A stretch of DNA of 64,000 nucleotides, from contig CAVYIJ010000007.1 of the NCBI GenBank assembly GCA_963768575.1, forward strand, positions 45,945-109,944, in the 5' to 3' direction. Made by a program: the position numbers and the translations under genes. Every line of letters begins with the position of its first letter. The stretch's first letter is position 1. Source of the stretch: an uncultured Halobacteria archaeon (GTDB taxonomy: Bacteria; Pseudomonadota; Gammaproteobacteria; UBA9214). The notes beneath the pieces were generated by a model. That model was not told the DNA's origin. It saw nothing but the letters and a program-made list of their open reading frames with translations, and searched no databases. Positions 905 through 63,727 of this stretch are shown here, piece by piece.

Positions 905-909
905 GCCGG

Positions 910-2262: not shown

Positions 2263-2386
2263 TTTCTTTATGTATCCCCGATTATGAGCAAATTCACCAA
2301 ATGGCAAGTATAACGGTATTCAGACGGATACCGGCATACTCGCCGGGACACTTCTCTGTACGCCACAGTTATGCGATGATTCCGCC

Positions 2387-3196: not shown

Positions 3197-3269
3197 AGGG
3201 TCCGCCCTGACATCGGCGCCTGATTTGCGTACACTAGCAGCTGGTTAACACACAAGAGGCTGTCCCCGT

Positions 3270-5617: not shown

Positions 5618-6601
5618 ATGGATGATATGACAGCCGAAGCGGCTCGGGAAATACCAACCAGAGTAAACGGACACACCCTCATCGCCGCCAGCACATGCAT
5701 GCAGGGTGTGCTGCGCACCATCAACAAAATATCGAACAACGATGCCCCGGCAATCATTACCGGCGAAAGCGGCACCGGCAAGGAACTGGCCGCGCGCGCC
5801 ATACATGAACAATCCGCGCGCAGGGATGGCGCCTTCATTGCAGTCAATTGCGGGTCCCTGCCCGCCGGCCTGATCCAGTCTGAATTGTTCGGCCACATGA
5901 AGGGCGCGTTTACCGGCGCACACAGTGACCGGATCGGCAGGATCGAAGCGGCGGACAAGGGAACGATCTTTCTTGATGAAATCGGTGATCTGCCCGTCGA
6001 TCTGCAAGTCAACCTGCTGCGTTTCCTGCAGGAAGGCGTCATCGAGCGTGTCGGCAGCGCGGATTCGATACCGGTTGATGTGCGCGTACTGGCAGCCACA
6101 AACATCGACCTGGAGGATGCCATAAAGCAGGGACGGTTTCGGGAAGATCTTTACTACCGCCTGAATGTATTGCCGGTCGAGTTGCCGCCCTTGCGTGAGC
6201 GAGACAAGGATATCGAACAACTCGCCATGCATTTCTTTGCGGAATTCACCCGCAACAAAAAGACCAGGGCGCGTGGGTTCAGCACTTCAGCGCTTTCGGC
6301 AATGAATGCCTATCACTGGCCCGGCAACGTCCGTGAACTGATCAACCGCGTTCGCCGGGGCATTGTGATGTGCGACGGTCCGCAGATTACACAGGAAGAC
6401 CTTGAACTGAACGGCAACATCCACGAGCATCCCGCGAAGACCCTGGCCGAGGCGCGCCGCGAATCGGAGCGCAGCGCGATTAAGGAAGCGCTGATGTGCT
6501 GCCGCAACAACGTCTCCGAGGCAGCACGCCGGTTGAGAGTCTCGAGGGTTACCCTGTACCGCCTGATTGACAAACACGGCCTGAAAAGAAGCCTGGTATA
6601 A
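5618..6601 (+). CDS. Sigma54-dependent enhancer-binding protein (AAA+ and Fis HTH) with no N-terminal sensor domain
   Basis: GESGTGKE, ELFGHMKGAFTGA, FLDEIGDL, FREDLYYRL, WPGNVREL, C-terminal HTH; start could be 5489 (TTG) or 5618 (ATG). Confidence 0.93.
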   Translation: MDDMTAEAAREIPTRVNGHTLIAASTCMQGVLRTINKISNNDAPAIITGESGTGKELAARAIHEQSARRDGAFIAVNCGSLPAGLIQSELFGHMKGAFTGAHSDRIGRIEAADKGTIFLDEIGDLPVDLQVNLLRFLQEGVIERVGSADSIPVDVRVLAATNIDLEDAIKQGRFREDLYYRLNVLPVELPPLRERDKDIEQLAMHFFAEFTRNKKTRARGFSTSALSAMNAYHWPGNVRELINRVRRGIVMCDGPQITQEDLELNGNIHEHPAKTLAEARRESERSAIKEALMCCRNNVSEAARRLRVSRVTLYRLIDKHGLKRSLV

Positions 6602-6732
6602 ACCTCCTTACAGACCGAAGAATCGTTGGCCGATCAGTCATTTTATGCTAGTTTCCCGGGTCTGGCGTTAGCTGCACGACCACTGAATATATACCGCTGC
6701 TTGTATGGCGGCTTGGTGTTAATTGACAAAAG

Positions 6733-7985
6733 GTGAAAACGATGTCGAATCGAGTGATCAATAATTCTGTCCTGTTTGGCCTGTTACTGTGTTCCGGCCA
6801 GGTGCTCAGCGCCGACGGGGGCGTGGATACAAGACTGGATGCGCTTGAGAAAGTCATTACAGAACAGGCAGATACATTAGAGCAGCAGCGCCGGGAGATC
6901 CGCCGGCTGCGCCAGTCCATCGACGGGACGTCTGCTACCAACAGGCAGGCGAGCGGCGAGGAGCTGCCCGTGTCGGGACTTGAAGGGATGCGCGCGGGAG
7001 CGGCCCCCACACCGGTCGGCCAGGCGCCTGAAGAGAAACGCAAGGCCCCTTCCAGCCTGCTGTCATTGCCCGAGGATGTGGGCGGCGTGTTGACCGCGCA
7101 GGGCAAGCTGGTGGTGGAACCGAGCACCTCGTTCTCCACTTCCCAGCTCAACCGCTTCACCTTTCGCGGTATCGAGATCATCGATACCGTCCTGATCGGC
7201 ATCGTGGATGCAGAGGATGTCGACCGTGATATGTACACCGCGACGTTGACCGGCCGCTACGGCCTGACCAACCGCATCGAGCTGGAAGCGAAGCTGCCGT
7301 ACATCTGGCGTGACGACCGGCTGACCGCAACCATCCCGAATGTCGCAGGCACGGACGTCGATGTATACACGAGACCAGGAAGGCAACGGCATCGGCGACA
7401 TCGAACTGGCCGCCCATTACCAGATCAACCAGGGCGCCAATGGCTGGCCCTTCCTGATCGGCAACCTGCGTTACAAGTCGACCACGGGTGAAGGTCCGTT
7501 CGATGTCACGCGCGATGCAGGCGGCATTGAGACGGAACTGGCAACCGGCTCCGGCTTTCACTCCGTCGAAGGCCAGCCTCACCGTGCTGTATCCGACCGC
7601 ACCGGCGGTACTGTTTGGCAACGTCGGTTATCTCTTCACCAAACAGGACAGTATCAACAAGATGATCGGCACCAATTACGTGGGGAATGTCGACCCAGGC
7701 GATGCCGTGCGTACGAGCTTCGGTATGGCGTATTCCGTGAACGAGCGCCTGTCCTTTACCCTCGGTTACAAGCATGATTTTATCTTTCAAACCGATACAG
7801 TTATTGGTAGCAGTCCGGCCAGTGCCGTGACAGTGCATCAGGCCGACCTCGACGTGGGCTCCTTTCTGTTCGGCTATGGTTTCCAGTTGACCCCGAAGCT
7901 GGGCATCAATCTAAACGTGGAAATAGGCGCTACGGACGATGCGCCCGATGCAGCGGTGACGGTGCGTCTCCCCTACAGCATCTAG
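6733..7985 (+). CDS. fapF: FapF-like outer-membrane beta-barrel exporter, interrupted by two apparent +1 frameshifts (~7365, ~7571)
   Basis: Signal peptide, coiled coil LDALEKVITEQADTLEQQRREIRRL, TLTGRYGLTNR, GIGD, ELATGSG, PAVLFGN, C-terminal IGATDDAPD..TVRLPYSI, matching FapF motifs; spread over ORFs 6733-7491, 7340-7777 and 7488-7985. Confidence 0.8.
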
Positions 7986-8014
7986 GCGGTTATCCCGCAC
8001 AGTTAAAACATGGC

Positions 8015-8046
8015 TACGGGAGCGGGCTTTATAGCCCGCTCCTGTA
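8015..8046. terminator. REP-like hairpin, probable terminator downstream of fapF in the gap facing the fapE-like gene
   Basis: tacgggagcgggct-ttat-agcccgctcctgta, 14-bp stem with one G-U pair. Confidence 0.65.
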
Positions 8047-8427
8047 ACACGCCCTGGTGCTGGAATATGTTGTTCAGCTCTGCCTGGAATTCGAATTAAA
8101 CGGCTGGTAGTCGCCGTCAATTTACCCGCAGTGGGGCTTTCGCGGCGCCCCCTGAACGAACCAGGCAGATACTTCGCTGCAGAAACGCCTGCCGCTGCAT
8201 CAACGATCACTCACTATATTGACAGTAAATCAATAGCACCGCTGCGGTTGGCGTGAACGAGCCCCTATATCGCCCGATGCATCTTCCTGGTGGGCCAGCA
8301 GTCACTCGGGCCGTTCTTCCCGGTTCAGTTGCGCATGCAACCACTAGACGTTACGAAAGGTAAACTGTGCATTCTTGCTGCACATCATTACGCGGGATCG
8401 AGGAATGCCTGCGAGAGCAGACCGGTA

Positions 8428-9111
8428 TTAGCGTGGTGTTGACGCAGCGCGGACTGAGCGACCCAGCGTCCCGGCGAACACCGAGTTGCGAGCAGCTTCG
8501 ACATACTCGGTGAAATTCCTTATGGTGATATCCACTTCGAGTTGATTGCTGAGATTCTGGTCGTTGCTGTTTGTGACCAGGGCGCTGACAATACTGTTCT
8601 GCGTCAGCTTTTCAAGCACCGCCGTAAAACCGTCCGAATTACCGATGATAATGCCACCTGTGGCATCCGCCAATCCGGCAAGGTCAACGCCAGGCAGCAG
8701 GTTACCGAGGGTTGTACCCGCCGTACCGCCAACCAGGTGAACCGGGGCGGCAATACCGGGATCGGTGGTAAGTACATTGCTGGTCTGGTCAAATCCACCG
8801 GACGTGTTCAGGGAGTAGACCGCTTCACGGATATAACCGTTTCCGGTAGTGCGCAGGTTCACGCCAAAGCTGACGTCCAGCCCTGCGACCCTGAGGCCAC
8901 CACGCATGTTTTCCATTTCGCCCTCTTCGAGTGCGCCGAACTGCTCCATCGCCGCGCCCGGATCGGCAAACCGGTCACCGTCCAGCCGGGTGGCGGACGC
9001 CGGCAGTGCGCTGCTGCTCGTCACAACCGGGAACAGCGCCGCAAGTAGCAGTAATCCCGTTAAACAAGCCCGGCTTTTGCACACGGTTGATGTGTATCGG
9101 TCGCGCGGCAT
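8428..9111 (-). CDS. FapE-like secreted accessory protein
   Basis: Signal-like N-terminus, LEEGEMENMRGG motif, Asn/Gln-rich C-terminal strand motif (ALVTNSNDQNLSNQLEVDITIRN); last gene after C39 peptidase. Confidence 0.6.
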   Translation of the reverse strand: MPRDRYTSTVCKSRACLTGLLLLAALFPVVTSSSALPASATRLDGDRFADPGAAMEQFGALEEGEMENMRGGLRVAGLDVSFGVNLRTTGNGYIREAVYSLNTSGGFDQTSNVLTTDPGIAAPVHLVGGTAGTTLGNLLPGVDLAGLADATGGIIIGNSDGFTAVLEKLTQNSIVSALVTNSNDQNLSNQLEVDITIRNFTEYVEAARNSVFAGTLGRSVRAASTPR

Positions 9112-9112
9112 A

Positions 9113-9898
9113 TTAACGACCCTGCTCGTTTCTGCCCGGCAGTGACAGGGTGAAGGAGCTAATACTTGATCGATCGACGCCCTCGGCGAGGGGGGAATCA
9201 GGCCAGCTGCGCCAGTCTTCTATCGCATTGAAATTCGCGCGCGCGACCTCGATATTGTTTTTTGCCGCCAGGATAGCGCCGTTCCACATGCCTTCGAAGA
9301 CTTCCCGGCTGACAACCGCCGTTCCGGCCGCCGGGTCGCCGACAAGTACGCGCTCACCCTCGATACCCTTGATGACGACGAAATGCTTGTAGCCCTTGGT
9401 ATTGATAACGGTGATGCCGGGAACCCCGATTTTCATGAACTGGTCCAGGGTCATTCGAAAACCGCCGGCATTCAGGCCGCGGCTGTCGAGGTAATGCTTC
9501 ATGTCGAGCATGGAAAAACCCTGGCTCTTTATCTTTTTCTTGTTACCCACCTTGAACATCGCCTCGAACACCTTTGCTTCGGGTGTCGGCATGTCGTAGT
9601 GGTAAGTCAGCAGGGTGGCCAGTGCCGCGGAACCACAGCTGTAGTCGTACTGTTGTTGTATGACCGTGTCCCAGCGTGCTTCCTTCTTGCTTTCCACCTT
9701 GAGCTTGAAATCACCCCCGCCAAAGCCGGGAATGGCCAGCGCGCCGGCATGCGCAGGAAAACAGCCCAGCTGGATGACTGCGAATATTGCCGGCAACAGA
9801 AATAACGAAGGCCTGGCAAGTGCCAGGCCGAATAGTCCAGTAATGGCAGACTTATTGCTGCCCTGTTTTTGTGTGAAAATGTTTTGCACAGCAAACAT
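9113..9898 (-). CDS. fapD: Stand-alone C39 family peptidase (FapD-like)
   Basis: QQYDYSCGSAALATLL (Cys), YKHFVV (His), VGDPAAG (Asp); hydrophobic signal; no fused ABC transporter. Confidence 0.88.
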   Translation of the reverse strand: MFAVQNIFTQKQGSNKSAITGLFGLALARPSLFLLPAIFAVIQLGCFPAHAGALAIPGFGGGDFKLKVESKKEARWDTVIQQQYDYSCGSAALATLLTYHYDMPTPEAKVFEAMFKVGNKKKIKSQGFSMLDMKHYLDSRGLNAGGFRMTLDQFMKIGVPGITVINTKGYKHFVVIKGIEGERVLVGDPAAGTAVVSREVFEGMWNGAILAAKNNIEVARANFNAIEDWRSWPDSPLAEGVDRSSISSFTLSLPGRNEQGR

Positions 9899-9920
9899 AC
9901 ACTAATTGTGATAACCAGTC

Positions 9921-10298
9921 TTATTGCAAGTTAATAGTGACGCCAATTGCATTGTTGACGGCGTTGTTGTTGCCTGTGACCACGTTGAACAGGCCGACAC
10001 CGCTGAACTCACCCAACGCACCTTCCGCGAAGCTGGCATTGCCGCTCGTCATCGTGCCGACATTGAAACTGCTGCCTGTGATGCTGGCACCCAGGTCCTG
10101 GTTGCTCTGCACGGTGATTGTGGTGCTGCCTTCACGTCCCCGCACGCCACCGAGATCATCACCCTCGATACTGGTGAAGTTGCCGAATGCCTCTGCAGTG
10201 GCCGGTTCCCCGGCGTATAACGGCCCGGCCGTGATCAGTACCATACTGCTGATGGCGGCCAGTACTACCTTCGAGATCGAACTGATTTTGTCCATCAT
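9921..10298 (-). CDS. Small secreted Fap-repeat protein (FapB-like candidate nucleator/minor subunit)
   Basis: Sec signal (PLYA), DDLGGVRG motif, C-terminal GNASFAEGALGEFSGVGLFNVVTGNNNAVNNAIGVTINL resembling the Fap repeat. Confidence 0.7.
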   Translation of the reverse strand: MMDKISSISKVVLAAISSMVLITAGPLYAGEPATAEAFGNFTSIEGDDLGGVRGREGSTTITVQSNQDLGASITGSSFNVGTMTSGNASFAEGALGEFSGVGLFNVVTGNNNAVNNAIGVTINLQ

Positions 10299-10367
10299 AT
10301 CAACCTTCCTGAATTCGAGTTGTTTTCTTCGCTACTTTTATGAATTCGGTTTCAACCCCTGCAAACC

Positions 10368-10395
10368 GGGGCCGGCAGACACTGCCGCCGGCCCC
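10368..10395 (-). promoter_or_regulatory. GC-rich intercistronic stem-loop after the two Gly-rich genes
   Basis: GGGGCCGGCGG-CAGTGT-CTGCCGGCCCC on the minus strand, 20 nt after the stop at 10416, no strong U-tract. Confidence 0.55.
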
Positions 10396-10415
10396 TTCTT
10401 GCTGCAGTGTTGCTG

Positions 10416-11900
10416 TTACAGACCGCCGTTGGTGGACACACCGCCGAATGAACCGATGTTCACTCCGCTGGCTGCACCGATCGACACGCCACCCAGGGTC
10501 CCGTTGTAGAGACCGGCTGATGCGTTGATGTTGGCGATACCACCGAGTACACCACCTGCGGTGCTAACGGTAGCCGTATCGGTGGCCAACTGGCCGCCGG
10601 AAGCAAGACCGCCATTACCACCGGATGCACCGCCACCGGCGTTGCCGCCGAAGCCGCCGAATCCGCCGGCGCCGCCGTCTGCACCATCAGCAGTGTTGGT
10701 GCCATTGTTGGTTTCACCACCAACTCCACCGTCACCACCGATCGCACCATTGGCATTGTTGTTGCCGTTGCTGGTGCCGCCACCATTGCCGCCGGCTCCC
10801 GCATTGGCCATGTTGCCGCCGTTGCTGGTGCCGCCACCGTTGGCGCCGTCACCGGCATCACCACCATTGGCATTGTTGCCGCCGTTGCTGGGTCCGCCGC
10901 CGTCACCGCCGTCACCGCCGTCGGCCGTTACAACGATATCACCACCGTCGCCGCCGCCGTCGCCGCCGCCGTCACCGCCACCCAGGTTGCTGCCGCCGTT
11001 ACCGCCGTTGGCATCACCTGAACCAGCTGCAACAGAGCCGCCGTAACCGCCTGCACCACCTTCACCACCGTCAGCATCGCCGTCGGTCGTGGTGATCATG
11101 CCGCCGTCACCGCCCTCGCTGCCGTAGGCATTACCGTAGCCTTTGGCTTTTCCACCTTCACCGCCATCGCCACCGTGACCGCCGTTGGCATCGCCGTAGG
11201 TGTCGATGTCACCACCATCGCCACCTTCATAGCCGTCACCGCCGTCAGCAAGACCGCCGTCACCGCCGTCACCGCCCGAATAACCGTCACCGCCATAGGC
11301 AGCACCGATATCGATGATGGACTCACCGGTTACAGTCGCATCCAGCGTCTGGTAGGAAATGACTTCCTTGATGGTGTTGAATGCCTCACTGTTGGCCTCG
11401 GCAGTTCCACCTAGACCACCCTCCGAGTGACCACCGAAACCACCATCGCCGCTATCGCTGCTCTGGGTGCTATCTGCAGTGCTGCCCTGGTCAGTGGTGT
11501 TGTCGTTGGTCTGAGTCGACCCGGTGTCTGCCAGATCACCACCATCACCACCTTCATCGCCACCACCGTTGCCCGATACAGCGTCATCGTTGGTCTGGAC
11601 TGAGGTGTTGTTATTGTTGCTGCTGGAGGTGCTATCGCCCGTGGCGTCGCCGCCATCGGCGCTTCCGCCGCTACCGCCCTCACCACCATCGGCGTTGGCT
11701 GTTGCAGTGGAATTGACGGTGTTGGACTGCCCACCGGACATCCCCACGTAACCGTTTAAAGTTTCAGCCGCTTGAGGTGCTTCATAGACCTGGCCACCGT
11801 TAGACAAATTGAACGAATTAACGGGGTTAGCCTGTGCACCTGTCGCTGTGAACATGCACATCGACACGGCTGAACTCACAAGTAGAGTTTTGAATTTCAT
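10416..11900 (-). CDS. Secreted Gly-rich (GGxGGx) putative fibre subunit B with Fap-like C-terminal repeat
   Basis: Sec signal AQA|NPVN; long GGD/GGN/GGA tracts; C-terminus GGIANINASAGLYNGTLGGVSI; RBS AGGAG. Confidence 0.85.
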   Translation of the reverse strand: MKFKTLLVSSAVSMCMFTATGAQANPVNSFNLSNGGQVYEAPQAAETLNGYVGMSGGQSNTVNSTATANADGGEGGSGGSADGGDATGDSTSSSNNNNTSVQTNDDAVSGNGGGDEGGDGGDLADTGSTQTNDNTTDQGSTADSTQSSDSGDGGFGGHSEGGLGGTAEANSEAFNTIKEVISYQTLDATVTGESIIDIGAAYGGDGYSGGDGGDGGLADGGDGYEGGDGGDIDTYGDANGGHGGDGGEGGKAKGYGNAYGSEGGDGGMITTTDGDADGGEGGAGGYGGSVAAGSGDANGGNGGSNLGGGDGGGDGGGDGGDIVVTADGGDGGDGGGPSNGGNNANGGDAGDGANGGGTSNGGNMANAGAGGNGGGTSNGNNNANGAIGGDGGVGGETNNGTNTADGADGGAGGFGGFGGNAGGGASGGNGGLASGGQLATDTATVSTAGGVLGGIANINASAGLYNGTLGGVSIGAASGVNIGSFGGVSTNGGL

Positions 11901-11920
11901 GACCTCTTCTCCTGTTCAGC

Positions 11921-13198
11921 TTAATTGCCGATGTTGACGTTGGAATGAGCGGAAATGGATACGCCACCCAGCGTCGCGTTGTACAGCCCGGAAGAAACGT
12001 TGATGTTGGCAATACCGCCGAACGTACCGGCAGCCGTAGTCACGTCAACCGCACCGGTTGTCAGCACACCACCGGTTGCGTCACCGCCGTTACCACCAGC
12101 ACCGCCGCCACCGCCTGCACCTGCTGTACCACCGTCACCACCGGCACCACCGGCACCCGCATTGGCGATGTTGCCGCCATTGTTGGTCGTACCGCCGCCA
12201 GCACCGTTACCGCCTGCAGCACCATCGGCAGTGTTACCGCCGTTGTCGGTCGTACCACCGGCACCGCCGTCTGCGCCATCAGCAACATTCGTGCCGTTAC
12301 CGCTTGTACCACCGGCACCGCCAGCGCCACCGTTACCGCCATCCGCAGCGTTGGTGCCGTTGTTCGGCGTACCGCCGTTACCGCCATTGCCGCCGTTACC
12401 GGCCACTGAATCACCGCCGTAGCCGCCATTGGCACTACCGTCGCCGGTGGCCGAACCGCCGGAGCCGCCCGAGCTGCCTTCACCGCCATCGGCATCGCCG
12501 CCGCTGACACTGATGGTGCCGCCGCTGCCGCCGTAACCGGCGTCTGCGTCACCCTTGCCCTTGGCATAACCGCCAGCACCGCCTTCACCGCCGTCGCCAC
12601 CGTTGGCATCGCCGTTGGTCGTGATGGTGCCGCCGTCACCGCCGTGGTCTCCGTCACCGCCATCGGCATCACCGCCGTGACCGCCATGGCCACCGGATGC
12701 ACCGTTACCGCCGGTTGCACCACCAATCGTGATGCTGGCACCGGTAATCTGGGCTTCCAGGGTCTGGTAGGAAATGACTTCCACGATATCGTTGAACGAC
12801 TCACTGTTGGCTGTTGCCGTGCCGCCAGCGCCGCCCGTGGAGTTGCCGCCTGTACCACCGGCACCGGCCGTGCTGGTCTGATTACTCGTGGCCGAATCGG
12901 TCTGGGTCGTGCCATTGGTGTTTGCCTGATCGGACTCAGCAGCACTGCTGTTGGCCTGATCACTGCTGTTGCTATTGCCGCTTGTGGCATTGCTAGAACC
13001 GCTTGCCTCACCACCGTCAGCATCTCCACCATCACTCGCGCTGCCGCCATAGGCATTCGCTGTGGCTGTTGAAGTTACGTCGTTGTGTTGACTACCTCCG
13101 AAATTGAACTTGTTAGTCGGGTTGGCAGATACGCCGCAGGCGTAACTGATGCCAATTGCCAGTGCTGACACCGTCAGCAGTTTCGTTTGCTTTTTCAT
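11921..13198 (-). CDS. Secreted Gly-rich (GGxGGx) putative fibre subunit A, paralog of 10416-11900
   Basis: Sec signal VSA|NPTN; shares STATANA, ANSE.FN.I.EVISYQTL.A..TG.SI and GGIANIN.S.GLYN.TLGGVSI blocks with the neighbour; RBS GAGGAG. Confidence 0.85.
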   Translation of the reverse strand: MKKQTKLLTVSALAIGISYACGVSANPTNKFNFGGSQHNDVTSTATANAYGGSASDGGDADGGEASGSSNATSGNSNSSDQANSSAAESDQANTNGTTQTDSATSNQTSTAGAGGTGGNSTGGAGGTATANSESFNDIVEVISYQTLEAQITGASITIGGATGGNGASGGHGGHGGDADGGDGDHGGDGGTITTNGDANGGDGGEGGAGGYAKGKGDADAGYGGSGGTISVSGGDADGGEGSSGGSGGSATGDGSANGGYGGDSVAGNGGNGGNGGTPNNGTNAADGGNGGAGGAGGTSGNGTNVADGADGGAGGTTDNGGNTADGAAGGNGAGGGTTNNGGNIANAGAGGAGGDGGTAGAGGGGGAGGNGGDATGGVLTTGAVDVTTAAGTFGGIANINVSSGLYNATLGGVSISAHSNVNIGN

Positions 13199-13404
13199 TT
13201 TTTCTCCTCAGTCCACTCAAACAAAAACGTTTTTACTCAATGGAATTAAAAACCTCAGTAATGCAGTGACGACGTAGAACCCGACTGTTATGCCAGGTCT
13301 GCACGGAGATATGCGTTATTGAAGCGAAGCCACTAAATAGGGTTTGCAGGGCGTGCTTCGATAACACCATCCATTGTCATGCCTTAATCAGGTACCGTAA
13401 TACC

Positions 13405-13421
13405 AGCAAGGAATGTACCAA
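13405..13421 (-). promoter_or_regulatory. Sigma54 (-24/-12) promoter for the Gly-rich/Fap operon
   Basis: Minus strand TTGGTACATTCCTTGCT: GG-N10-GC spacing with TTGC at -12; about 200 nt upstream of the first gene; sigma54 EBP in the locus. Confidence 0.75.
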
Positions 13422-13622
13422 CAGAAATATTCAATAAACAAAACAATAAGATATCTACCAGAGTGTCGTGTTTTCTGGCGCTATCCATGAATAACCTGCA
13501 AAAAGTGATTAGCGCGCTTTACACTCTTTCGCCGGGCAAAGCTCCAGACACGCGCAATTTGATGAATCAAAGACACCCGCAGCCAGGGGCCAGAATGGTT
13601 ATTTTGTATCTATATTCATATA

Positions 13623-13635
13623 TTTCAATAGCTTG
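13623..13635 (+). promoter_or_regulatory. IHF-like site
   Basis: TTTCAATAGCTTG, one mismatch to WATCAANNNNTTR; a weaker site AAACAATAAGATA at 13441-13453. Confidence 0.4.
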
Positions 13636-14207
13636 CAGTACATATTTGTGATGTCGATTGCGTACACGAACGACCTGGAACGGGTCAAATGACATTGTTT
13701 CAACATTGTTACACCTGACAATATTGAAACTACGGCGACCACGTTTTCGGGACGAATCCGGCCACCATTACCCTGCACGCCTGACGAACTGGACGGGAAT
13801 GTGCACCAGTGTTGTTACACATTCCCTTTTATTTACTCCGAAAATGAGCGGATCGGGCTTAAATTCCTGCCTGTTAAGAATCCTGACGCAGGCCGCCTGT
13901 GGGCACCCCGATACCTGGTAACGGTTGCGGCAATGAAACGCAGCCCACTACGCGGGCATCCGGTTCGACGCCTGTCAAAGGCAATAATTGCTCGATGGCT
14001 GGAAGTTATAAAAGATGTCGCATAGTATGGTTGAATGATGTACGGCAAGTACAACAACAGCCTGCTAGTGGCGAAAACACCGCCGCACGGCTGAAATCTT
14101 GCCACAGTACTCAAGGCAATGTTGTCAGGCTGCCTGAGGAACCGATTGGGATTATTTTGATGCGAAGTCACTACTGTTGTTTTGTAATGGATCGTGGTGC
14201 GAGTTGG

Positions 14208-17200
14208 ATGCACACGGAAAAACGGGCTGTTTCCTGTACCTCACTGTGGCAAGCCTTTTTCTCATTACTGCAAAATAATAATTTTTTCCGGTCAGTAATC
14301 ATGCCTGCACTGTTGCTGGCAGGCCTGCATGGGTGCGCTACCCAGATGCAGATGGGCGATCAAAATACGCTCGTCACGGCAGCCACCGTTGGCGACAACA
14401 CCAAGGTAGCAAAACTGCTCGGCCAGGGAGTCGATGCAAATATCCAGCTGAATGATGGCACCACGGCATTGTTCATGGCAGCACAGCAAGGACACACAGA
14501 TACCGTCACGTTGCTGCTCAATGCCCAAGCCAACGTCAACGTGCTGGGTTATCGTGGCGCGACACCGTTACTCATTGCCGCTACGACCGGTCACACGGAC
14601 ATCGTCGACCTGCTCGTCAAGCGTGGCGCCACCGTGGATATTCCACGTGAAGATCAAGCCACGCCCCTGTTCATGGCGGCACAGGGCGGTTATGTGAACG
14701 TCGTGAACCTCCTTATAGATGCAGGCGCATATCCGGACAAGCTCGCATACAAGGGAGCAACTGCGTTGTTCATTGCAGCCCAGAACGGACATCACCCGGT
14801 TGTCCAGGCACTTGCAGTCAAAGGCGCAGATGTAAACCTGGGCCTGGAGGACGGCACGACACCGCTCCTCGCAGCAGCGCTGAAAGGACACATGAGTGTC
14901 AGCAGGGTTCTGCTGGAGCATGGCGCCAGGCCGGATACTGCAAATAACCGCGGCATGACACCAATGCTGGCTGCTCGTCAGGAAGGTCACCCGGAATTGT
15001 CGGCATTACTCGGCAGGGCACTGGCATCGCCCGCGCTGGCAGGCACCAAAACCGGCCCGGCACCGGAAATCCAGTCCGCCCCGGTTGTTGAGGAAACGAC
15101 CGGTGCAGTTGCTGCAATGTCATCCGGTCAGCCCGTGCCTGCTGAAAGCGCCGAAACGCGAGTCGTGGCCGAGGTAAGACAAATACCGGGTACAAACACT
15201 GATGCCGCGTCAACGGCAACAACTGCTTCTGCCGCGTCAACGGCAACAACCGCTTCTGCCGTGTCAACGGCAACAACCGCTTCTGCCTCGACAAGCGGCA
15301 CGACACCGCATGAAGCGGCCGTAAAAACGGAAGAATCACCTGCCGGCACAGACCAACCGTCATCCGGCCCAATGCAGGCAGCAACAGTGACGACCGTAAG
15401 CGGCGTGCCTGCTTCAAAGGATAACGACAATACCGCGCCGGTACCGGCACCTGTCACAGAACGGGTAACCGACAGCACTGCGGGCACCGACAAACAAGTT
15501 GCACCGTCCACCGCCGCCTCATGGCGACCTGAAACACCGGCGTCGCAGGTAGCCGGTGACACTGCACCAAAAGACAGCCAGCCCACCGTCAAGCCGTCCG
15601 CTCCGGAACCAACAACTGTCGCGCAGCAGGCGGCCGCCCGGAAAGCCGGTGACGGACCGCAAGCTGCACCGGCAACCGCCGCAACCTGGCAGCCTGAAAC
15701 ACCGGCGTCGCAGGTAGCCGGTGACACTGCACCAAAAGACAGCCAGCCCACCGTCAAGCCGTCCGCTCCGGAACCAACAACTGTCGCGCAGCAGGCGGCC
15801 GCCCGGAAAGCCGGTGACGGACCGCAAGCTGCACCGGCAACCGCCGCAACCTGGCAGCCTGAAACGCCGGCGTCACAGGTAGCGGCCGACGCCGTTCCAG
15901 AAGTCAAACAGGCCGCCGGCAAGCCGGCCGCTCCGGAACCGACCGCGGTCGCGCAGCAGGCGGCCGTCGTGAAAAGCGGTGATGGACCAACAACTGCACC
16001 GGCAACCGTCGCCACGCAACCGGCTGAAAAGCCGGTGCAGCAGGCATCCGGCAAAACCATGCCTGCAACTCCGCAACCGGCACCGAGTAAAATCACCGTA
16101 GCCGGCAAACCGGCTACTGACGAAAAGATTGTGTATATGAAGCCAACGCCGCCCGAGCCCGTGAAAACCGGCGAACGTACCGAACGAGAGGCAGCGACCG
16201 TTGGCGCTGCGCCTGCTGCCGCGAATAAACCAGTGCAAAAAAAGAGAGACGATGGACCCGCTACCATAACAAAACCGGCAATAAAAACTCCGCCGGTAGA
16301 ACTGGCACAGGAAAATTCCGCGAGTATGGAAAATACCATCGCGACAGCTGAACGTGCCGACGAGGACAACACCAGCCCGGTCAGCAGTGCCGTCAGCAAA
16401 AGGTCGACCGACTCACCGGTCGCTTCCAAAACAGAAACAATCGTTGCGAACGTAGACAAGAATAAGGATGAACCGCGCACCGAACCTGCGCAGGCACCGG
16501 ACCTTGCAACTACCGGAACCGCCAAAACCCGCCTGGCTGCAATCGAACTCGAGAGCGACGATCTACAGGTGCGCGCCACAACCAGCAGAAAAATTCTTCG
16601 CGAGGAAACAACTCCCGCAGAGACAGTTAAAAAAGTAATAAAGGGACTGGACGAGGACGAGGAATCCGGACTGGCGGATACCGGTGCCGCGACAATCCAG
16701 AAGCAGTTCACCCGTAAAAATTTCGATGCGAACAAGCATGTGAAGCCGATGCAGGGTAACTTCATCGTCATAAAACCAACGGATATCTATACATCACCTC
16801 AATGGCATGCCTCCAGGTTCAGGAGCCTTGCATCCGGACGTAAAGTAGAGGTCAACGGTTACGTGCAGGGCGGAAAATGGTTTCGTATCAAGTATGCCGG
16901 CGGGGATGGTTACGTCCCGGTACGGCGGCTGAGGGAGATCAGGGACGAAACAACCGGGGAACCGGCCTCCGCGGAGATAAGTGCTGAAACCCTGAAGCGG
17001 AAAATAAACGTTCTTCCGGAAGGTACTTCGGAGCAGCACTACAAATTTGCCATGAATATGTTCCAACTCGGTGAATACACAACGGCTACCCAGGCATTTT
17101 CGGAATTTGTTGAATTACATCCGCATGACTCGAAGGCGCCCAGCGCCATTTACTGGCAGGGCATGTCGTACTACGTCAAGCAAAACTATTCGCAGGCTGC

Positions 17201-17408
17201 TTCCAGTTTCATGCTTCTCTACAAGAGTTTCCCAAGGGACAATAAAGCCGCGGAGGGCCTGCTCAAGTTGAGTAATTCCCTGCACGCACTGGGCAAGCAG
17301 GAAGCCGCCTGTACAGCCCTGGAACAGTTGCGTAATGAATACCCGGGATCCTATCTACGCCTTAAACGTGAAATATATAACAGCGGGGCGGATGCGGGAT
17401 GCTCCTGA
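14208..17408 (+). CDS. Putative lipoprotein: 7 ankyrin repeats, long Ala/Pro/Thr linker, SH3-like domain, CpoB/YbgF-like TPR domain
   Basis: LLLAGLHGC lipobox-like (Cys codon 14334); TPL/TALF.AA..GH..VV.LL repeats; GKWFRIKYAGGDGYV; YWQGMSYY..QNYSQAA...KAAEGLLKL. Start uncertain (13899-14301). Confidence 0.8.
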   Translation: MHTEKRAVSCTSLWQAFFSLLQNNNFFRSVIMPALLLAGLHGCATQMQMGDQNTLVTAATVGDNTKVAKLLGQGVDANIQLNDGTTALFMAAQQGHTDTVTLLLNAQANVNVLGYRGATPLLIAATTGHTDIVDLLVKRGATVDIPREDQATPLFMAAQGGYVNVVNLLIDAGAYPDKLAYKGATALFIAAQNGHHPVVQALAVKGADVNLGLEDGTTPLLAAALKGHMSVSRVLLEHGARPDTANNRGMTPMLAARQEGHPELSALLGRALASPALAGTKTGPAPEIQSAPVVEETTGAVAAMSSGQPVPAESAETRVVAEVRQIPGTNTDAASTATTASAASTATTASAVSTATTASASTSGTTPHEAAVKTEESPAGTDQPSSGPMQAATVTTVSGVPASKDNDNTAPVPAPVTERVTDSTAGTDKQVAPSTAASWRPETPASQVAGDTAPKDSQPTVKPSAPEPTTVAQQAAARKAGDGPQAAPATAATWQPETPASQVAGDTAPKDSQPTVKPSAPEPTTVAQQAAARKAGDGPQAAPATAATWQPETPASQVAADAVPEVKQAAGKPAAPEPTAVAQQAAVVKSGDGPTTAPATVATQPAEKPVQQASGKTMPATPQPAPSKITVAGKPATDEKIVYMKPTPPEPVKTGERTEREAATVGAAPAAANKPVQKKRDDGPATITKPAIKTPPVELAQENSASMENTIATAERADEDNTSPVSSAVSKRSTDSPVASKTETIVANVDKNKDEPRTEPAQAPDLATTGTAKTRLAAIELESDDLQVRATTSRKILREETTPAETVKKVIKGLDEDEESGLADTGAATIQKQFTRKNFDANKHVKPMQGNFIVIKPTDIYTSPQWHASRFRSLASGRKVEVNGYVQGGKWFRIKYAGGDGYVPVRRLREIRDETTGEPASAEISAETLKRKINVLPEGTSEQHYKFAMNMFQLGEYTTATQAFSEFVELHPHDSKAPSAIYWQGMSYYVKQNYSQAASSFMLLYKSFPRDNKAAEGLLKLSNSLHALGKQEAACTALEQLRNEYPGSYLRLKREIYNSGADAGCS
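15207..15287 (+). repeat. 3 x 27-nt coding tandem repeat (ASTATTASA)
   Basis: gcgtcaacggcaacaacYgcttctgcc three times, the third starting gtg. Confidence 0.85.
15528..16022 (+). repeat. 165-nt (55-aa) coding tandem repeat, two identical copies plus one diverged
   Basis: cctgaaac.ccggcgtc starts at 15528, 15693 and 15858. Confidence 0.9.
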
Positions 17409-17542
17409 ATGCCGCAATAGCTGCCTGTCTTCCGCCCTCGTTACTTATTTCTGCAGCAGTTTAATTTCCGGCAACACACCGGCCTGGCCTTCGACAGGTC
17501 GAGGCGTCCGGCAGCGAGCCCGGCGCTGTAACCCGAAGGCCC

Positions 17543-18913
17543 CTAGAAATCTGCTGCAAGGGCCTCGATCACCTGTTGCAAATTGCTGACCGCTACCACA
17601 TGCATGCCCTGCACGGGCTTTTTCGGCTGGTTGGCAAGCGGGATAATTGCATGCCTGAAGCCGTGCTTGGCAGCTTCGTTGAGACGCTCCAGTCCGTTCG
17701 GTACCGGCCGCAGCTCGCCTGACAGGCCGATTTCACCGAATACAACCAGGTTTTCCGGCAGCGGAGTATCGCGAAAACTCGACACCACGGCCAGCAACAC
17801 CGCGAGATCGGCCGCTGTTTCACTGACCTTCACACCACCCACCACGTTGACGAAGACGTCATGGTCGGCAAGCAACAGCCCGCCGTGGCGATGCAGCACG
17901 GCGAGCAGCATGGAAAGACGGTTCTGCTCCAACCCCAGTGTTACCCTGCGCGGATTACCTGACTGGCCCTGGTCGACCAGCGCCTGCACCTCGACCAGCA
18001 TCGGCCGGGTACCCTCCCAGGCAACCATCACCACGCTGCCCGGCACCGCTGTTTCGTGCCTGGAGAGAAAGATAGCCGACGGATTACGCACTTCTTTCAA
18101 CCCGTTTCCGGTCATGGCGAACACACCCAGTTCATTGACGGCACCGAAACGGTTTTTGATCGCACGCAGAATCCGGTAACGATTTCCCGGGTCACCTTCA
18201 AAGTACAGGACGGTATCGACCATGTGCTCCAGTACACGCGGGCCTGCCAGCGTACCCTCCTTGGTGACATGTCCGACCAGGAACATTGCCACGCCCGAGC
18301 GCTTCGCAAAACGCACCAGTTGCGCCGCGCTTTCCCTGACCTGCGCAACCGAACCGGGCGCTGATTGCAGCAGCTCGGTAAAGAGTGTCTGTATCGAGTC
18401 CAGCACCATGACCTGCGGCTGCTCCCTGGCAGCCACGGCAAGAATGCGTTCAACCGAGGTTTCGGAGAGCAGACGGATGTGGCTGCCATCGATGTCCAGC
18501 CGATCTGCACGCAGTGAGATCTGCTCCAGGGATTCTTCACCGGTTACATACAGCGAGGCAAGCTTGTCAGACAGGGCGGCAAGTACCTGCAAGAGCAGTG
18601 TCGATTTTCCGATCCCCGGGTCGCCACCAATCAGGACGACAGAGCCTGAAACCAGCCCGCCGCCCAGCACCCGGTCGAGTTCCTGCAACCCGACCGAGTT
18701 ACGAATATGCGCATCGGAGTGGACGGCACTCAGGGGCGTGACCTGTGACCCGCTGCCACCGCTATAGGCCGTGAAGCGGCCGGGTGAAACCTTGGCCGCG
18801 GCCACAGCCTCGGACAGCGTGTTCCAGCCCCCGCATTCGCCGCATTGACCGGCCCATTGCGGGGCTTCAGCGCCACAGGCACTGCAGGTGAAAATAATTT
18901 TTGGCCTGGCCAA
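17543..18913 (-). CDS. radA: DNA repair protein RadA (Sms)
   Basis: CSACG..WAGQCGEC zinc finger, GGDPGIGKST, KNRFG motif. Confidence 0.97.
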   Translation of the reverse strand: MARPKIIFTCSACGAEAPQWAGQCGECGGWNTLSEAVAAAKVSPGRFTAYSGGSGSQVTPLSAVHSDAHIRNSVGLQELDRVLGGGLVSGSVVLIGGDPGIGKSTLLLQVLAALSDKLASLYVTGEESLEQISLRADRLDIDGSHIRLLSETSVERILAVAAREQPQVMVLDSIQTLFTELLQSAPGSVAQVRESAAQLVRFAKRSGVAMFLVGHVTKEGTLAGPRVLEHMVDTVLYFEGDPGNRYRILRAIKNRFGAVNELGVFAMTGNGLKEVRNPSAIFLSRHETAVPGSVVMVAWEGTRPMLVEVQALVDQGQSGNPRRVTLGLEQNRLSMLLAVLHRHGGLLLADHDVFVNVVGGVKVSETAADLAVLLAVVSSFRDTPLPENLVVFGEIGLSGELRPVPNGLERLNEAAKHGFRHAIIPLANQPKKPVQGMHVVAVSNLQQVIEALAADF

Positions 18914-19098
18914 GAGTTCCCGTCCGCGTCAGAAAAACGGCACGCGAAGCATTTGCTGTTGCGCCGCTATCTTGTTGTTTTCCTGATTCATTCCATTATC
19001 TCCCGAACGCTCATCGGCAAACGACTAAAGCTTTTCCGGCAATCGCCGCCTAACTGATAGATTGATAACGGAAAAGTCCTAAATCACAGGAATCGCAC

Positions 19099-59521: not shown

Positions 59522-59950
59522 TCAGCGCGTCCTCGGGCAAAGCCCCTCGCTGAAGAAATATTCGATTTCCTGTGCGGCGGTTTCGGGCGCATCCGAACCA
59601 TGCACGGCATTCTCGTCGACCGTTTTCGCGAAGTCCGCACGAATAGTCCCGGGCGCCGCTTCAGCCGGGTTGGTTGCACCCATCAGCTCACGATTCCCGA
59701 GGATGGCGTTCTCACCTTCCAGGACCTGCACCACGACCGGGCCCGAGGTCATGAATTCGACGAGGTCCTTGTAGAACGGGCGCTCCCTGTGCACGGCATA
59801 GAAGCCCTCGGCCTGCTCCCGGGTGAGGTGCACCATTTTCATTGCGATGACACGCAAGCCGTTCTTCTCGAATCGACTGACGATCTCGCCAATCACGTTT
59901 TTGGCGACGGCATCCGGCTTGATGATGGAAAAGGTGCGTTCAATGGCCAT
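59522..59950 (-). CDS. ndk: Nucleoside diphosphate kinase
   Basis: [25 protein letters not shown]. Confidence 0.98.
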
Positions 59951-60214: not shown

Positions 60215-61084
60215 TCAGGAAAACACCCGGTGGGCGGTTGCGCCGATCAGTGCCGGGTTGCGAACGACGTGCACGCCGAGTTCCTCCATGCTGTCCATCT
60301 TGGCATTGGCGGTATCCGACTCACCGGAGATAATCGCGCCGGCATGCCCCATGCGCCGTCCCGGGGGTGCGGAAACGCCGGCCACGAAACCGACCAGCGG
60401 CTTGCTCATATTGTCTTTTGCCCAGCGCGCGGCATCGACTTCCTGCGGCCCACCGATTTCACCGATCATGATAACGGCATCGGTATTCGGGTCTTCCTCG
60501 AAAGCACGCAATACGGTCACGAAGTCGGTCCCGTTGACCGGGTCGCCACCGATACCCACCGAGGTCGACTGGCCCAAACCCAGCTCGGACATCTGCTGGA
60601 CTGCCTCGTAGTTGAGCGTGCCGGAACGCGACACCACGCCGATGCGGCCGGGTGAGTAGATATGCGATGGCATGATACCGACCTTGCAGGCGCCCGGCGT
60701 AATAATGCCCGGTGTGTTCGGTCCGATGATGATGGCATTGCGGTCAGCGGCATAGCGCTTGACCTGGACCATATCCTGCACCGGGACGCCATCGGCGATA
60801 ACAACCACCACGCTGATACCGGCTTCCAGCGCCTCCATGATCGCATCGGCGGCAAATGGCGGCGGCACGAAAATGCCGCTGACGTCAGCGCCTGTCGCTA
60901 CCACCGCCTGTTGCACGGTATCGAATACCGGCAGGCCAAGGTGGGTAAGCCCGCCCTTGCCCGGCGTGACGCCGCCGACAACGGTGGTGCCGTTCTTCAT
61001 GGCCTCCTCGGCATGGAACGTGGCATGTTGCCCGGTAAAGCCCTGGATAATGACCCGGGAATGCTTGTGCACAAAGACGCTCAT
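60215..61084 (-). CDS. mtkB: Malate--CoA ligase alpha subunit (SucD family)
   Basis: GGVTPGKGG, GIMPSHIY, SRSGTL, GEIGGPQE, RMGHAGAI; follows mtkA and mcl. Confidence 0.78.
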   Translation of the reverse strand: MSVFVHKHSRVIIQGFTGQHATFHAEEAMKNGTTVVGGVTPGKGGLTHLGLPVFDTVQQAVVATGADVSGIFVPPPFAADAIMEALEAGISVVVVIADGVPVQDMVQVKRYAADRNAIIIGPNTPGIITPGACKVGIMPSHIYSPGRIGVVSRSGTLNYEAVQQMSELGLGQSTSVGIGGDPVNGTDFVTVLRAFEEDPNTDAVIMIGEIGGPQEVDAARWAKDNMSKPLVGFVAGVSAPPGRRMGHAGAIISGESDTANAKMDSMEELGVHVVRNPALIGATAHRVFS

Positions 61085-62250
61085 GATTGTGCCTCCAGTG
61101 TAGCCATTACCCTGGTGGCCGCATCATCCAGGTTGTTGGCCATGATGAACGGGAAGCCGGATTTTTCGAGTATCGGTCTGCCAAGTTCCACGTTGGTCCC
61201 GGCCAAACGCACCACGATCGGCACCTTTATCTCCAGCTCGCGCATGGCCTGCACCAGGCCTTCGGCGATCCAGTCACACCGATTAATGCCCGCGAAGATA
61301 TTTACCAGGATGATCTTTACGTTCGGGTCCTGCAGCACGATCCGGAATGCATTGCCCACCTTCTCCGGCGAGGCGCCGCCACCCACATCGAGGAAATTGG
61401 CCGGCTTGCCGCCGTGGAAACTGATTGCATCCATGGTCGCCATGGCCAGACCGGCGCCGTTGACGATACAACCGACATTGCCATCGAGTGCGATGTAATT
61501 CAGCCCGTGACCGGTTGCCTCGACCTCCTTCGGGTCTTCCTCGTCGAAATCACGCAATTCGGTGATTTGCGGACGGCGGTACAGCGCATTGCCGTCGAAT
61601 GACATTTTGGCATCCACCGCCATCAGTGAACCGCCATTCACCTCTGCCAGCGGGTTGATCTCGGCCAGCAGCGCGTCCTTGTCGCGGAATGCCCGGTACA
61701 GCGCCTGCATCAGCTTGGCGGCCTCGCCGATCTGCTTGCCCTGCAGGCCGATCTTCGCGGCGATCTTGCGGCACTGGAAACTCATCAGGCCCACCGCGGG
61801 ATCGACCACCTCGCGGATGACCTTGCCCGGATCGGTCTTCGCCACTTCTTCGATATCCATGCCGCCCGAGGCTGAAGCTATGACAGTAATACGTTGCGTT
61901 GCGCGGTCAATGACCAGCGCGAGATAGTATTCCTTCTTGATGTCGCAGGCCTGCTCGATGAGTACACGCTGCACCAGGCGCCCTTCCGCCCCGGTCTGCG
62001 GTGTCACCAGGTGACTGCCGAGCATCTCGTCGGTCAGCATGCGGACATCCTCTATGGACTCCGCCAGCTTTACGCCACCGCCCTTGCCGCGGCCACCGGC
62101 ATGTATCTGCGCCTTTACAATCCAGCGCTCGCCGCCAAGGTGTTCCGCGACGGCCGCCGCATTGTCAACATTATGTGCCACGCGTCCGGCAGGCACCGGA
62201 ACACCGTAACCTTTCAACAATTCCTTGGTTTGATACTCGTGAATATTCAA
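61081..62250 (-). CDS. mtkA: Malate--CoA ligase beta subunit (SucC family)
   Basis: KAQIHAGGRGK, NGAGLAMATMD, NIFAGINRCDWIA (MtkA-type rather than SucC GGIVRCD). Confidence 0.8.
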   Translation of the reverse strand: MNIHEYQTKELLKGYGVPVPAGRVAHNVDNAAAVAEHLGGERWIVKAQIHAGGRGKGGGVKLAESIEDVRMLTDEMLGSHLVTPQTGAEGRLVQRVLIEQACDIKKEYYLALVIDRATQRITVIASASGGMDIEEVAKTDPGKVIREVVDPAVGLMSFQCRKIAAKIGLQGKQIGEAAKLMQALYRAFRDKDALLAEINPLAEVNGGSLMAVDAKMSFDGNALYRRPQITELRDFDEEDPKEVEATGHGLNYIALDGNVGCIVNGAGLAMATMDAISFHGGKPANFLDVGGGASPEKVGNAFRIVLQDPNVKIILVNIFAGINRCDWIAEGLVQAMRELEIKVPIVVRLAGTNVELGRPILEKSGFPFIMANNLDDAATRVMATLEAQS

Positions 62251-62271
62251 TGCAGTTCTCCGTTAAAAACG

Positions 62272-63246
62272 TTACTGGCGTGCGGCAAGTGATTTTTCAA
62301 TCTGCGCTGCCTTGTCGACCATGACCTGTGCCTGTCGAATGGATGCAGCGTCGATCAGTCGGCCATCCAGCGACACTGCGCCGCGTCCTTCCTTTGCGGC
62401 CTGTTCCATGGCCACCAGGATCCGGCGGGCGCGGTCGATTTCGGTATCGGCCGGGGTAAACACCTCATTGGCGAGTTCGATCTGGGACGGATGAATGGCC
62501 CATTTACCTTCGACACCCAGCGCCGCGACACTGCGCGAGACCGCACGGAAACCATCGGGATCCGAAATATCACCAAACGGCCCGTCGATCGGGCGCAAAC
62601 CGTAGGCACGGCAGGCGACCACCATGCGGGAGATCGCAAAGTGCCACTGGTCACCCCAGTGTCGTTCGCGCGCACCTTCGTTGTCCGGGTGCGTCAGCGT
62701 GTAGTAATCCGGATTGGCGCCGCCCATGTTGGTGGTACGCGCCTGGGTCGAAGCGGCATAATCGGCAACACCGAACACCATGGCCTCGAGACGTTCGGGA
62801 CATGTCTGTGCGATCTGCTCCACGTTGGCCATGCCCATGGCCGTTTCGATCAGTATGTGCAGGTTGATCTGCTTGATCTTTTTTGCCGCCTCGATTTGCT
62901 CCAGCAGGGTCGATACGAACAGGATGTCTGACGGCGTGTTGACCTTGGGAATCAGGATAGTATCGAGGTGGCTACCGGCCTGCTCGACCACATCGACGAT
63001 GTCGCGATAGCAATAGTGCGTATCCAGGCCGTTGATACGGATCGAGACGGCGCAGTTCGACCAGTCCAGGTCATTGAGTGCCGCGATCACATTCTTGCGG
63101 GCCTGTTCCTTGTCATCCGGCGCCACCGCATCTTCGAGGTCCAGGAAGACCACGTCGGCGCCCGCGCCAGGCGCCTTCTCGAGCATGCGAATATTACTGC
63201 CGGGTACTGCCAGTTCACTGCGGTGCAGGCGATTTTTAACAGCCAT
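62272..63246 (-). CDS. mcl: L-malyl-CoA/beta-methylmalyl-CoA lyase
   Basis: RLHRSELAVPGSN, DLEDAVAPDDKEQARKN, RINGLDTHY, FGVADYAAS, HWGDQWH, PIDGPFGD, as in Methylorubrum MclA. Confidence 0.88.
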   Translation of the reverse strand: MAVKNRLHRSELAVPGSNIRMLEKAPGAGADVVFLDLEDAVAPDDKEQARKNVIAALNDLDWSNCAVSIRINGLDTHYCYRDIVDVVEQAGSHLDTILIPKVNTPSDILFVSTLLEQIEAAKKIKQINLHILIETAMGMANVEQIAQTCPERLEAMVFGVADYAASTQARTTNMGGANPDYYTLTHPDNEGARERHWGDQWHFAISRMVVACRAYGLRPIDGPFGDISDPDGFRAVSRSVAALGVEGKWAIHPSQIELANEVFTPADTEIDRARRILVAMEQAAKEGRGAVSLDGRLIDAASIRQAQVMVDKAAQIEKSLAARQ

Positions 63247-63526
63247 GAATACCTCAACCTTATTAATTGTCCGGAAAAGAAGATACCTGGCGCGGTCCGC
63301 AACCAGGCATGCAAACGCAGCACGTGCTGCCTGAACAAGGCCGCGTAATATACAAGGTTGGCGCGCTTAATGAAACGCGGGCGTGCCTGCCCGGTGTGTC
63401 AACGATCAGCTGGCGGCTGGCATGAAATGCCGCCGTTATCCTGATTTATAATTTATATTCAACAGGTTATTTGATTAATAACACGCGCCTGTTCGCCGCG
63501 GGCAAAAGGGGGCCGCAACCAAACCG

Positions 63527-63727
63527 TTACTCCCGTTCCTCGATCCATGCCATCTGGATCGCCTCGAGGATACGCTCACCGCTATGCTCGGGGTCATCAT
63601 CGAAATCGTCCAGCCCCATCACCAGCGCGTGCAACTCCACAAAATTGAGATGCAAGGGGTCGGTATCCGGGTATTTCTCGTCAAGCTCAATCGCTATATC
63701 CAGCGAGTCTGTCCATTTCAGTGCCAT
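63527..63727 (-). CDS. iscX: Fe-S cluster assembly protein IscX
   Basis: MALKWTDS.DIAIEL, GERILEAIQMAWIEE; follows fdx. Confidence 0.95.
   Translation of the reverse strand: MALKWTDSLDIAIELDEKYPDTDPLHLNFVELHALVMGLDDFDDDPEHSGERILEAIQMAWIEERE

Follow-up and report, generated by a model that had tools for sequence, protein, structure and literature searches.

Which enzymes are encoded by three genes lodged between iscX and ndk in the genome of a sulfur-oxidising autotroph, and in which direction would they work there? The stretch of DNA analysed here, 64,000 nucleotides long and called the window in what follows, is C7:45945-109944, a part of contig C7 (CAVYIJ010000007.1) in a draft genome of 3.39 Mb and 21 contigs (96.5% complete), whose owner is a RuBisCO-bearing, CO2-fixing, sulfur-oxidising bacterium. 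An mcl-mtkA-mtkB module between iscX and ndk had been predicted from the letters of the window alone, and exactly three co-directional open reading frames on the minus strand fill the predicted span, 60215-63246. The first, mcl (62272..63246; 324 aa), is followed after 21 nt by mtkA (61081..62250; 389 aa, with a TTG start), whose stop overlaps the start of mtkB (60215..61084; 289 aa) by 4 nt. The three genes form one operon, for (S)-malyl-CoA lyase (Mcl) and for both subunits of malate thiokinase (malate--CoA ligase; beta, MtkA; alpha, MtkB). We hold this identity, including the predicted preference for malate, to be very probable because phylogeny, signature residues, operon linkage and the separate SucCD copies of the genome all point to it.

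In agreement with the original prediction, the product of mcl is a malyl-CoA lyase of the Methylorubrum/Rhodobacter Mcl1 type, with predicted activity on (S)-malyl-CoA. Its HpcH/HpaI (CitE-like) TIM barrel (PF03328, E 5.9e-42) finds its best solved relative in the malyl-CoA/beta-methylmalyl-CoA lyase 5UGR, which we take to be the M. extorquens enzyme (E 1.7e-134 over residues 5-314), and the second in the Rhodobacter Mcl 4L9Y (E 8e-98); the matches to CLYBL and CitE are much weaker (E 1e-35 or worse). Moreover, the protein is 63% identical to the mcl product of a Paracoccus serine-cycle cluster. It scores under every citE, RipC and haloarchaeal cut-off of NCBIfam, so an automatic pipeline would name it a generic 'CoA ester lyase', as plasmid records also do with true serine-cycle mcl genes.

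The two ligase subunits have the architecture of succinyl-CoA synthetase (SucCD), with ATP-grasp_2 and Ligase_CoA domains in the beta subunit (PF08442 and PF00549) and CoA_binding and Ligase_CoA domains in the alpha subunit (PF02629 and PF00549), and they keep the catalytic residues, Glu197 in beta and the phosphohistidine (E. coli His246) and Glu208 in alpha. Fold, subunit organisation and phosphohistidine mechanism are shared with the E. coli enzyme (PDB 1JKJ/2SCU), from which the window ligase differs in seven fixed beta positions, in its clade and in its gene partner. The phylogeny that had been proposed as a check places it with MtkAB and not with SucCD, in quick maximum-likelihood searches rooted on E. 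coli and for both subunits. In the beta tree, the mcl-linked proteins and the MtkA proteins of alphaproteobacterial serine-cycle clusters fall into one clade of 51 rows (Shimodaira-Hasegawa-like approximate likelihood ratio test, SH-aLRT, 97), which takes in Paracoccus, Aminobacter, Ruegeria and M. bullatum, and the ligase clade is separated from SucC with a support of 97-99. In the alpha tree, a single branch (SH-aLRT 98) sets all mcl-linked sequences apart.

A close-up view of the beta subunit gives a signature for this clade. The AGINRCDW motif announced by the original prediction is found in the 389-aa protein, within NIFAGINRCDW; it is shared without exception by the 51 ligases of the MtkA clade, 49 of which adjoin mcl, and occurs in none of 37 SucC sequences, where the loop GGI(V/M)(R/K)CD stands in its place. 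Altogether, seven positions discriminate the clade from SucC, all of them in the C-terminal domain (in E. coli numbering and with the clade residue before that of SucC: 262 I/M, 295 P, 305 V/I, 320 A/G, 323 N/V or M, 327 W/aliphatic and 350 A/E), and the window protein has all seven of the clade residues. The loop 320-323 presumably lines the dicarboxylate (succinate) site, as in the structure of the pig succinyl-CoA synthetase with succinate (Huang and Fraser 2016). No position of the alpha subunit discriminates the MtkB from the SucD groups.

The host genome holds two further SucCD-like pairs, one at C9:149461-151472 and one on contig C19, so the separate sucCD that the original prediction had called for exists and the window ligase is not the only candidate for a succinyl-CoA synthetase. 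The SucC of the C9 pair, whose loop reads GGIVRCDL, falls into one group with E. coli SucC; the window ligase is ~53% (beta) and 58% (alpha) identical to this pair. Since the genome has this other, E. coli-like pair, the window pair is not its housekeeping succinyl-CoA synthetase.

Two known groups offer the closest comparisons. The MtkAB/Mcl sets of alphaproteobacterial methylotrophs (Methylorubrum extorquens, Paracoccus alcaliphilus, Aminobacter and Ruegeria) carry the identical AGINRCDW motif and form a sister clade (SH-aLRT 97), with 54-57% identity between their MtkA and that of the window. Their genes are embedded among sga, hpr, gck, glyA and ppc, in the order sga-mcl-mtkA-mtkB-hpr-gck in the reference clusters of Aminobacter, P. 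alcaliphilus and Ruegeria, whereas in the window the three genes stand as a bare cassette amid housekeeping genes. On the gammaproteobacterial side, 'SucCD-2' of Methylococcus capsulatus, which two engineering studies (PMC5964204, PMC6966089) found to be the most active malate thiokinase, forms with the adjacent mcl of the Bath strain a three-gene set of the same kind and type as that of the window. In our beta tree, which left out the M. capsulatus sequence itself, the Methylococcaceae are represented by four orthologues (70-72% identity, mcl upstream) within the 47-member clade of the window protein. M. capsulatus is a methanotroph in which the pair has been read as part of a partial serine cycle, whereas the window host is a sulfur-oxidising autotroph with a Calvin-Benson-Bassham (CBB) cycle, in whose genome no methanol dehydrogenase was found.

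The linkage of the three genes reaches far beyond the window. Among 80 related loci compared in reference genomes, mcl stands directly upstream of the beta and alpha genes in 45 of the 46 with at least 65% identity, the sole exception being from the Gaiellaceae, where the 2.6 kb upstream contain no mcl; the mcl-linked loci belong to Gamma- and Betaproteobacteria, Actinomycetota and one planctomycete, and none of 34 Bacilli SucCD loci shows such a linkage. Bare cassettes occur outside the order of the window in Nitrotoga and other Gallionellaceae, Thiodiazotropha and Sedimenticolaceae, Sulfuricaulis and Acidiferrobacteraceae, and Methylococcaceae. When the flanking open reading frames of the 46 operon loci were clustered, nothing besides the three genes was found in common between lineages; outside the order the neighbours are unshared housekeeping genes (e.g., glyQ, ettA, parA and resA), and this context therefore gives no functional hint.

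For a hint of function we must turn to the gene content of the host. The original prediction had named RuBisCO and glcDEF as genes to look for, and both are present: the genome has a form I RuBisCO with two phosphoglycolate phosphatases (Gph), and glcDEF lies at C7:115635-119403, across the isc operon and ~6.5 kb from mcl. The isocitrate lyase and malate synthase of aceAB, the crotonyl-CoA carboxylase/reductase gene ccr and methylotrophy genes were also to be searched. At 96.5% completeness the genome yielded neither malate synthase A or G (the family PF01274 is absent) nor isocitrate lyase, ccr (best match 62 bits, cut-off 378) or pyrroloquinoline quinone (PQQ) methanol dehydrogenase; nor were glyoxylate carboligase, a match to the mesaconyl-CoA hydratase family or a glycerate kinase of the GlxK or DUF4147 type found in it. 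Present, on the other hand, are ppc, citrate synthase, SdhA, 2-oxoglutarate dehydrogenase, malic enzyme and a pyruvate dehydrogenase (PDH)-type E1 alpha/E2/E3 set. The statement that no serine-cycle genes adjoin the module holds for its surroundings, as sga, hpr, gck and ppc were found neither at the window end nor in the next 14 kb, and needs correction for the genome, where sga and hpr exist on C19. These genes do not make up a serine cycle: sga, hpr and ppc are present yet unlinked, and the GlxK/DUF4147 kinase and the PQQ methanol dehydrogenase are missing from the set.

MtkAB and Mcl would together catalyse a chain of reactions near equilibrium, malate + ATP + CoA <-> malyl-CoA + ADP + Pi <-> acetyl-CoA + glyoxylate. 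In the host, GlcDEF would supply glyoxylate from glycolate, derived either from the 2-phosphoglycolate of RuBisCO or from import; Mcl would condense it with acetyl-CoA to malyl-CoA, and MtkAB would transfer the thioester energy to ADP, giving malate and ATP. The malate would then enter the tricarboxylic acid (TCA) cycle, or be decarboxylated by malic enzyme and pass through the PDH-type complex, so that the net process would amount to a 'malate cycle' in which Mcl and Mtk replace malate synthase. A malate cycle for phosphoglycolate salvage has a precedent in Cupriavidus necator (PMC7486775). There, malate synthase has the same proposed net task in a CBB chemolithoautotroph, turning acetyl-CoA and glyoxylate from GlcDEF into malate, but it belongs to a family unrelated to Mcl (PF01274) and loses the thioester energy by hydrolysis, whereas the window route would take two steps through free malyl-CoA and pass that energy on to ATP.

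What favours the consumption of glyoxylate is its conserved source together with the lack of other outlets. The order of the window comprises a single family, represented by 54 species-level genomes that all come from metagenomes, and 51 of them have mcl, 50 glcD, 37 RuBisCO, five sga and three, all of one genus, malate synthase. From these counts, most members have no recognisable glyoxylate sink but Mcl, while GlcDEF is the conserved source. In a supporting role, two of the three genomes lacking mcl are among the five that carry sga. Of the roles suggested in the original prediction, the salvage of glyoxylate or phosphoglycolate fits best, with RuBisCO, Gph and glcDEF present in a genome from which malate synthase, isocitrate lyase and glyoxylate carboligase are missing; an acetyl-CoA supply without pyruvate dehydrogenase was rejected, as a PDH-type complex exists, and a partial 3-hydroxypropionate route did not hold up either, with neither mesaconyl-CoA hydratase nor ccr. 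Taken as a whole, an Mcl-MtkAB operon that works mainly by condensation and links glyoxylate to malate is the explanation that we consider reasonably probable. On its own, the proposal that flux runs mainly in this direction, draining glyoxylate from GlcDEF into malate, is one to which we lean tentatively.

The glcDEF genes call for some observations of their own. Beyond the window end (L003 10621-15218; C7:115620-120218), glcD-glcE-glcF is followed by the gene of a rhodanese-like sulfurtransferase, and a DUF1249 gene and the iscRSUA-hscBA-fdx-iscX operon run divergently from this block. In most genomes of the order, mcl and glcD share a contig and lie 7-8 kb apart. In a genome of the same genus as the host (G088:C7:44555-45550), the glcD match starts at model position 81 and has one in-frame TGA, which may mean that the gene is broken or was missequenced.

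Two other views of the enzymes themselves have to be weighed. The ligase could be a redundant paralogue of succinyl-CoA synthetase and the lyase a CitE-like enzyme acting on an acyl-CoA derived from citryl-, citramalyl- or itaconyl-CoA, in which case automatic annotation would be essentially correct. Such a view is encouraged by the scores: NF010647 (MtkA) is the top NCBIfam model for the beta subunit, with 570.9 bits that miss NCBI's curated cut-off of 604, a point against malate thiokinase, and the subunit passes the SucC model (558.5 bits, cut-off 370) just as the alpha subunit passes NCBI's SucD cut-off. The best solved-structure matches of the ligase are, moreover, succinyl-CoA synthetases, with no malate thiokinase structure among them. 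However, the NF010647 cut-off appears to be tuned to the alphaproteobacterial group on which it was built, and it is an annotation threshold and no biochemical criterion. Against a paralogue of SucCD stand the clade apart from SucC (support 97-99), the seven residues of the beta C-terminal domain fixed otherwise than in SucC, the E. coli-type SucCD elsewhere in the genome and the linkage to an Mcl that resembles that of M. extorquens (E 1.7e-134) far more closely than it does any CitE (E 1e-34 or worse), and we judge the paralogue very improbable. Still less credible is that Mcl acts on beta-methylmalyl-CoA in an ethylmalonyl-CoA, methylaspartate or partial 3-hydroxypropionate route for the assimilation of acetate, propionate or other organic acids. 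An Mcl of this type is bifunctional, as the name of 5UGR tells, but the gene content (no ccr, at 62 against 378 bits, no mesaconyl-CoA hydratase family match and no isocitrate lyase in the 96.5% complete genome) led us to reject the three routes.

The direction of flux is a matter of its own, and several points weigh against glyoxylate being drained into malate. The malate synthase reaction releases ~35-45 kJ/mol and ATP synthesis in vivo takes ~45-50 (approximate values), so glyoxylate must be high and malate low for condensation with a gain of ATP; at normal energy charge the net reaction, close to equilibrium, is tilted to cleavage. To our knowledge, all characterised pairs, in the serine cycle and in engineered pathways, run towards cleavage. 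Outside the order, malate synthase accompanies the operon in all ten Sedimenticolaceae genomes that have it, and 45 of 61 Gallionellaceae genomes have neither, observations for which we rejected a general complementarity between operon and malate synthase. Within it, 17 of the 54 genomes show no RuBisCO yet retain mcl, and the link to a photorespiration-like salvage is consequently not strict: with a third of the order keeping mcl and glcD without RuBisCO, imported glycolate is as likely as what RuBisCO yields in its oxygenase reaction. The proximity of mcl and glcDEF, being inherited within one order, amounts to one observation only. In the opposite scenario, modelled on the serine cycle and on the synthetic malyl-CoA-glycerate pathway, PEP (phosphoenolpyruvate) carboxylase and malate dehydrogenase would make malate, MtkAB would spend ATP on it and Mcl would split malyl-CoA, yielding C2 units without loss of CO2 and glyoxylate for the synthesis of glycine and serine. 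This is the thermodynamically favoured direction at normal energy charge and the only one demonstrated for MtkAB-Mcl (PMC5964204, PMC6966089); ppc is in the genome, sga (70% to Paracoccus Sga) and hpr are on C19, and actinomycetotal orthologues sit in serine-cycle-like hpr-ppc-aminotransferase-mcl-mtkAB clusters. But sga occurs in five genomes of the order as against 51 with mcl, and the glyoxylate produced would have no recognisable sink in most members since the GlxK/DUF4147 glycerate kinase and glyoxylate carboligase were not found; acetyl-CoA is already supplied by the PDH-type complex, and methanol dehydrogenase was not found in the genome. We therefore regard cleavage as the main use as rather unlikely; what probability these two directions leave goes to a condition-dependent use of both.

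That the condensing direction makes Mcl and MtkAB, run backwards, an ATP-conserving replacement of malate synthase throughout this uncultured order of sulfur-oxidising gammaproteobacteria is possible, if doubtful; perhaps the same use extends to Nitrotoga and other CBB chemolithoautotrophs with the bare cassette. If so, there would be a natural 'malyl-CoA shunt' for the salvage of glycolate and 2-phosphoglycolate, with one ATP recovered per glyoxylate, and an ATP-yielding condensation would be of interest for the engineering of photorespiratory bypasses, which now rely on malate synthase or on Mtk/Mcl in the ATP-consuming sense. About one third of the RuBisCO-bearing organisms other than cyanobacteria have no malate synthase (PMC7486775), and for some of them the cassette is a testable answer to how glyoxylate is disposed of. 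The enzymes are known, one close type having been validated experimentally, and their physiological setting is little described: in the open-access literature, we found no work linking malyl-CoA lyase with Thiodiazotropha, Nitrotoga, Sedimenticola, Sulfuricaulis or Gallionella, nor with phosphoglycolate salvage in chemolithoautotrophs. What is new here is the order-wide conservation in non-methylotrophic sulfur oxidisers without malate synthase, the systematic misnaming of the genes and the salvage hypothesis.

In regard to the naming, the original prediction had expected an automatic SucCD annotation to be wrong, and so it turned out. Because the beta subunit stays below the MtkA cut-off and passes that of SucC, the NCBI pipeline calls it SucC, the name that relatives with 86-92% identity bear at NCBI; the name given by JGI is an ambiguous double. 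Many public genes named succinyl-CoA synthetase by NCBI, in the order of the window, Nitrotoga, Thiodiazotropha, Sulfuricaulis, Methylococcaceae and some Actinomycetota, are marked as malate thiokinase by their phylogeny, the seven-residue signature and the linkage to mcl. Metabolic reconstructions of these autotrophs consequently miss the node between glyoxylate, acetyl-CoA and malate.

The module occupies a 3.6-kb gap between iscX and ndk, with the same G+C content as its flanks. Upstream, at a distance of 280 bp, is iscX (63527..63727, minus strand; TIGR03412, E 6.4e-32), the last gene of the isc operon, and 264 bp downstream is ndk (59522..59950, minus strand; NF001908, E 8.1e-67), followed by rlmN, pilW and hisS. 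The adjacency of iscX and ndk had been described as usual, which a class-wide sample of nine other gammaproteobacterial families with detectable iscX bears out: ndk follows iscX directly in five of them and lies 1.2 kb away in a sixth. As the order iscX-mcl-mtkA-mtkB-ndk is kept in the closest relatives (loci L005-L013) and the direct adjacency is found in those five families, the module is an old insertion.

A conserved, promoter-like 22-mer, CCTTGTATATTACGCGGCCTTG (63336..63357, minus strand), precedes the start codon of mcl by about 90 nt. Seven related loci of the order agree in every letter of its 18-nt core, GTATATTACGCGGCCTTG, with a slightly variable flanking CCTT, and the 22-mer is unique in the host genome at up to two mismatches; a regulon search of the genome did not find it upstream of glcD, nor was it found upstream of mcl in other clades. 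A scan of the operon and its flanks with Rfam gave no match, and a consensus scan for promoters and terminators gave no more sites than in shuffled sequence. The element is probably an order-specific promoter or operator of the operon.

Other gene neighbourhoods came to light in these comparisons. In metagenome-assembled genomes of Actinomycetota with no RuBisCO match, the loci L042 and L045-L048 (~100-8050) carry clusters of hpr, ppc, a class V aminotransferase gene, mcl, mtkA and mtkB, which look like serine-cycle operons of uncultured actinobacteria. In the host genome, an island on C19 (L002; C19:103000-122000, ~2559-18990) has the sga with 70% identity to Paracoccus Sga (serine-glyoxylate aminotransferase), hpr (hydroxypyruvate reductase) and the formyl-CoA transferase gene frc, and it is of an accessory, glyoxylate/oxalate type, with a GntR regulator, a TctABC-like (tricarboxylate-type) transporter, an alpha/beta hydrolase, a PIG3-type oxidoreductase and an aldehyde dehydrogenase. 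The island also holds the third SucCD-like pair of the genome, which has the motif GGGIMRCDT and whose beta gene is frameshifted, with the first 55 codons in another frame, either in reality or by an assembly error. This frc-linked pair has a parallel in a plasmid of Azospirillum ramasamyi (NZ_CP029830.1, 796476-803669; L089), where sucC and sucD follow oxc and frc, and such SucCD-like ligases beside genes of oxalate degradation suggest a further specialised SucCD subgroup.

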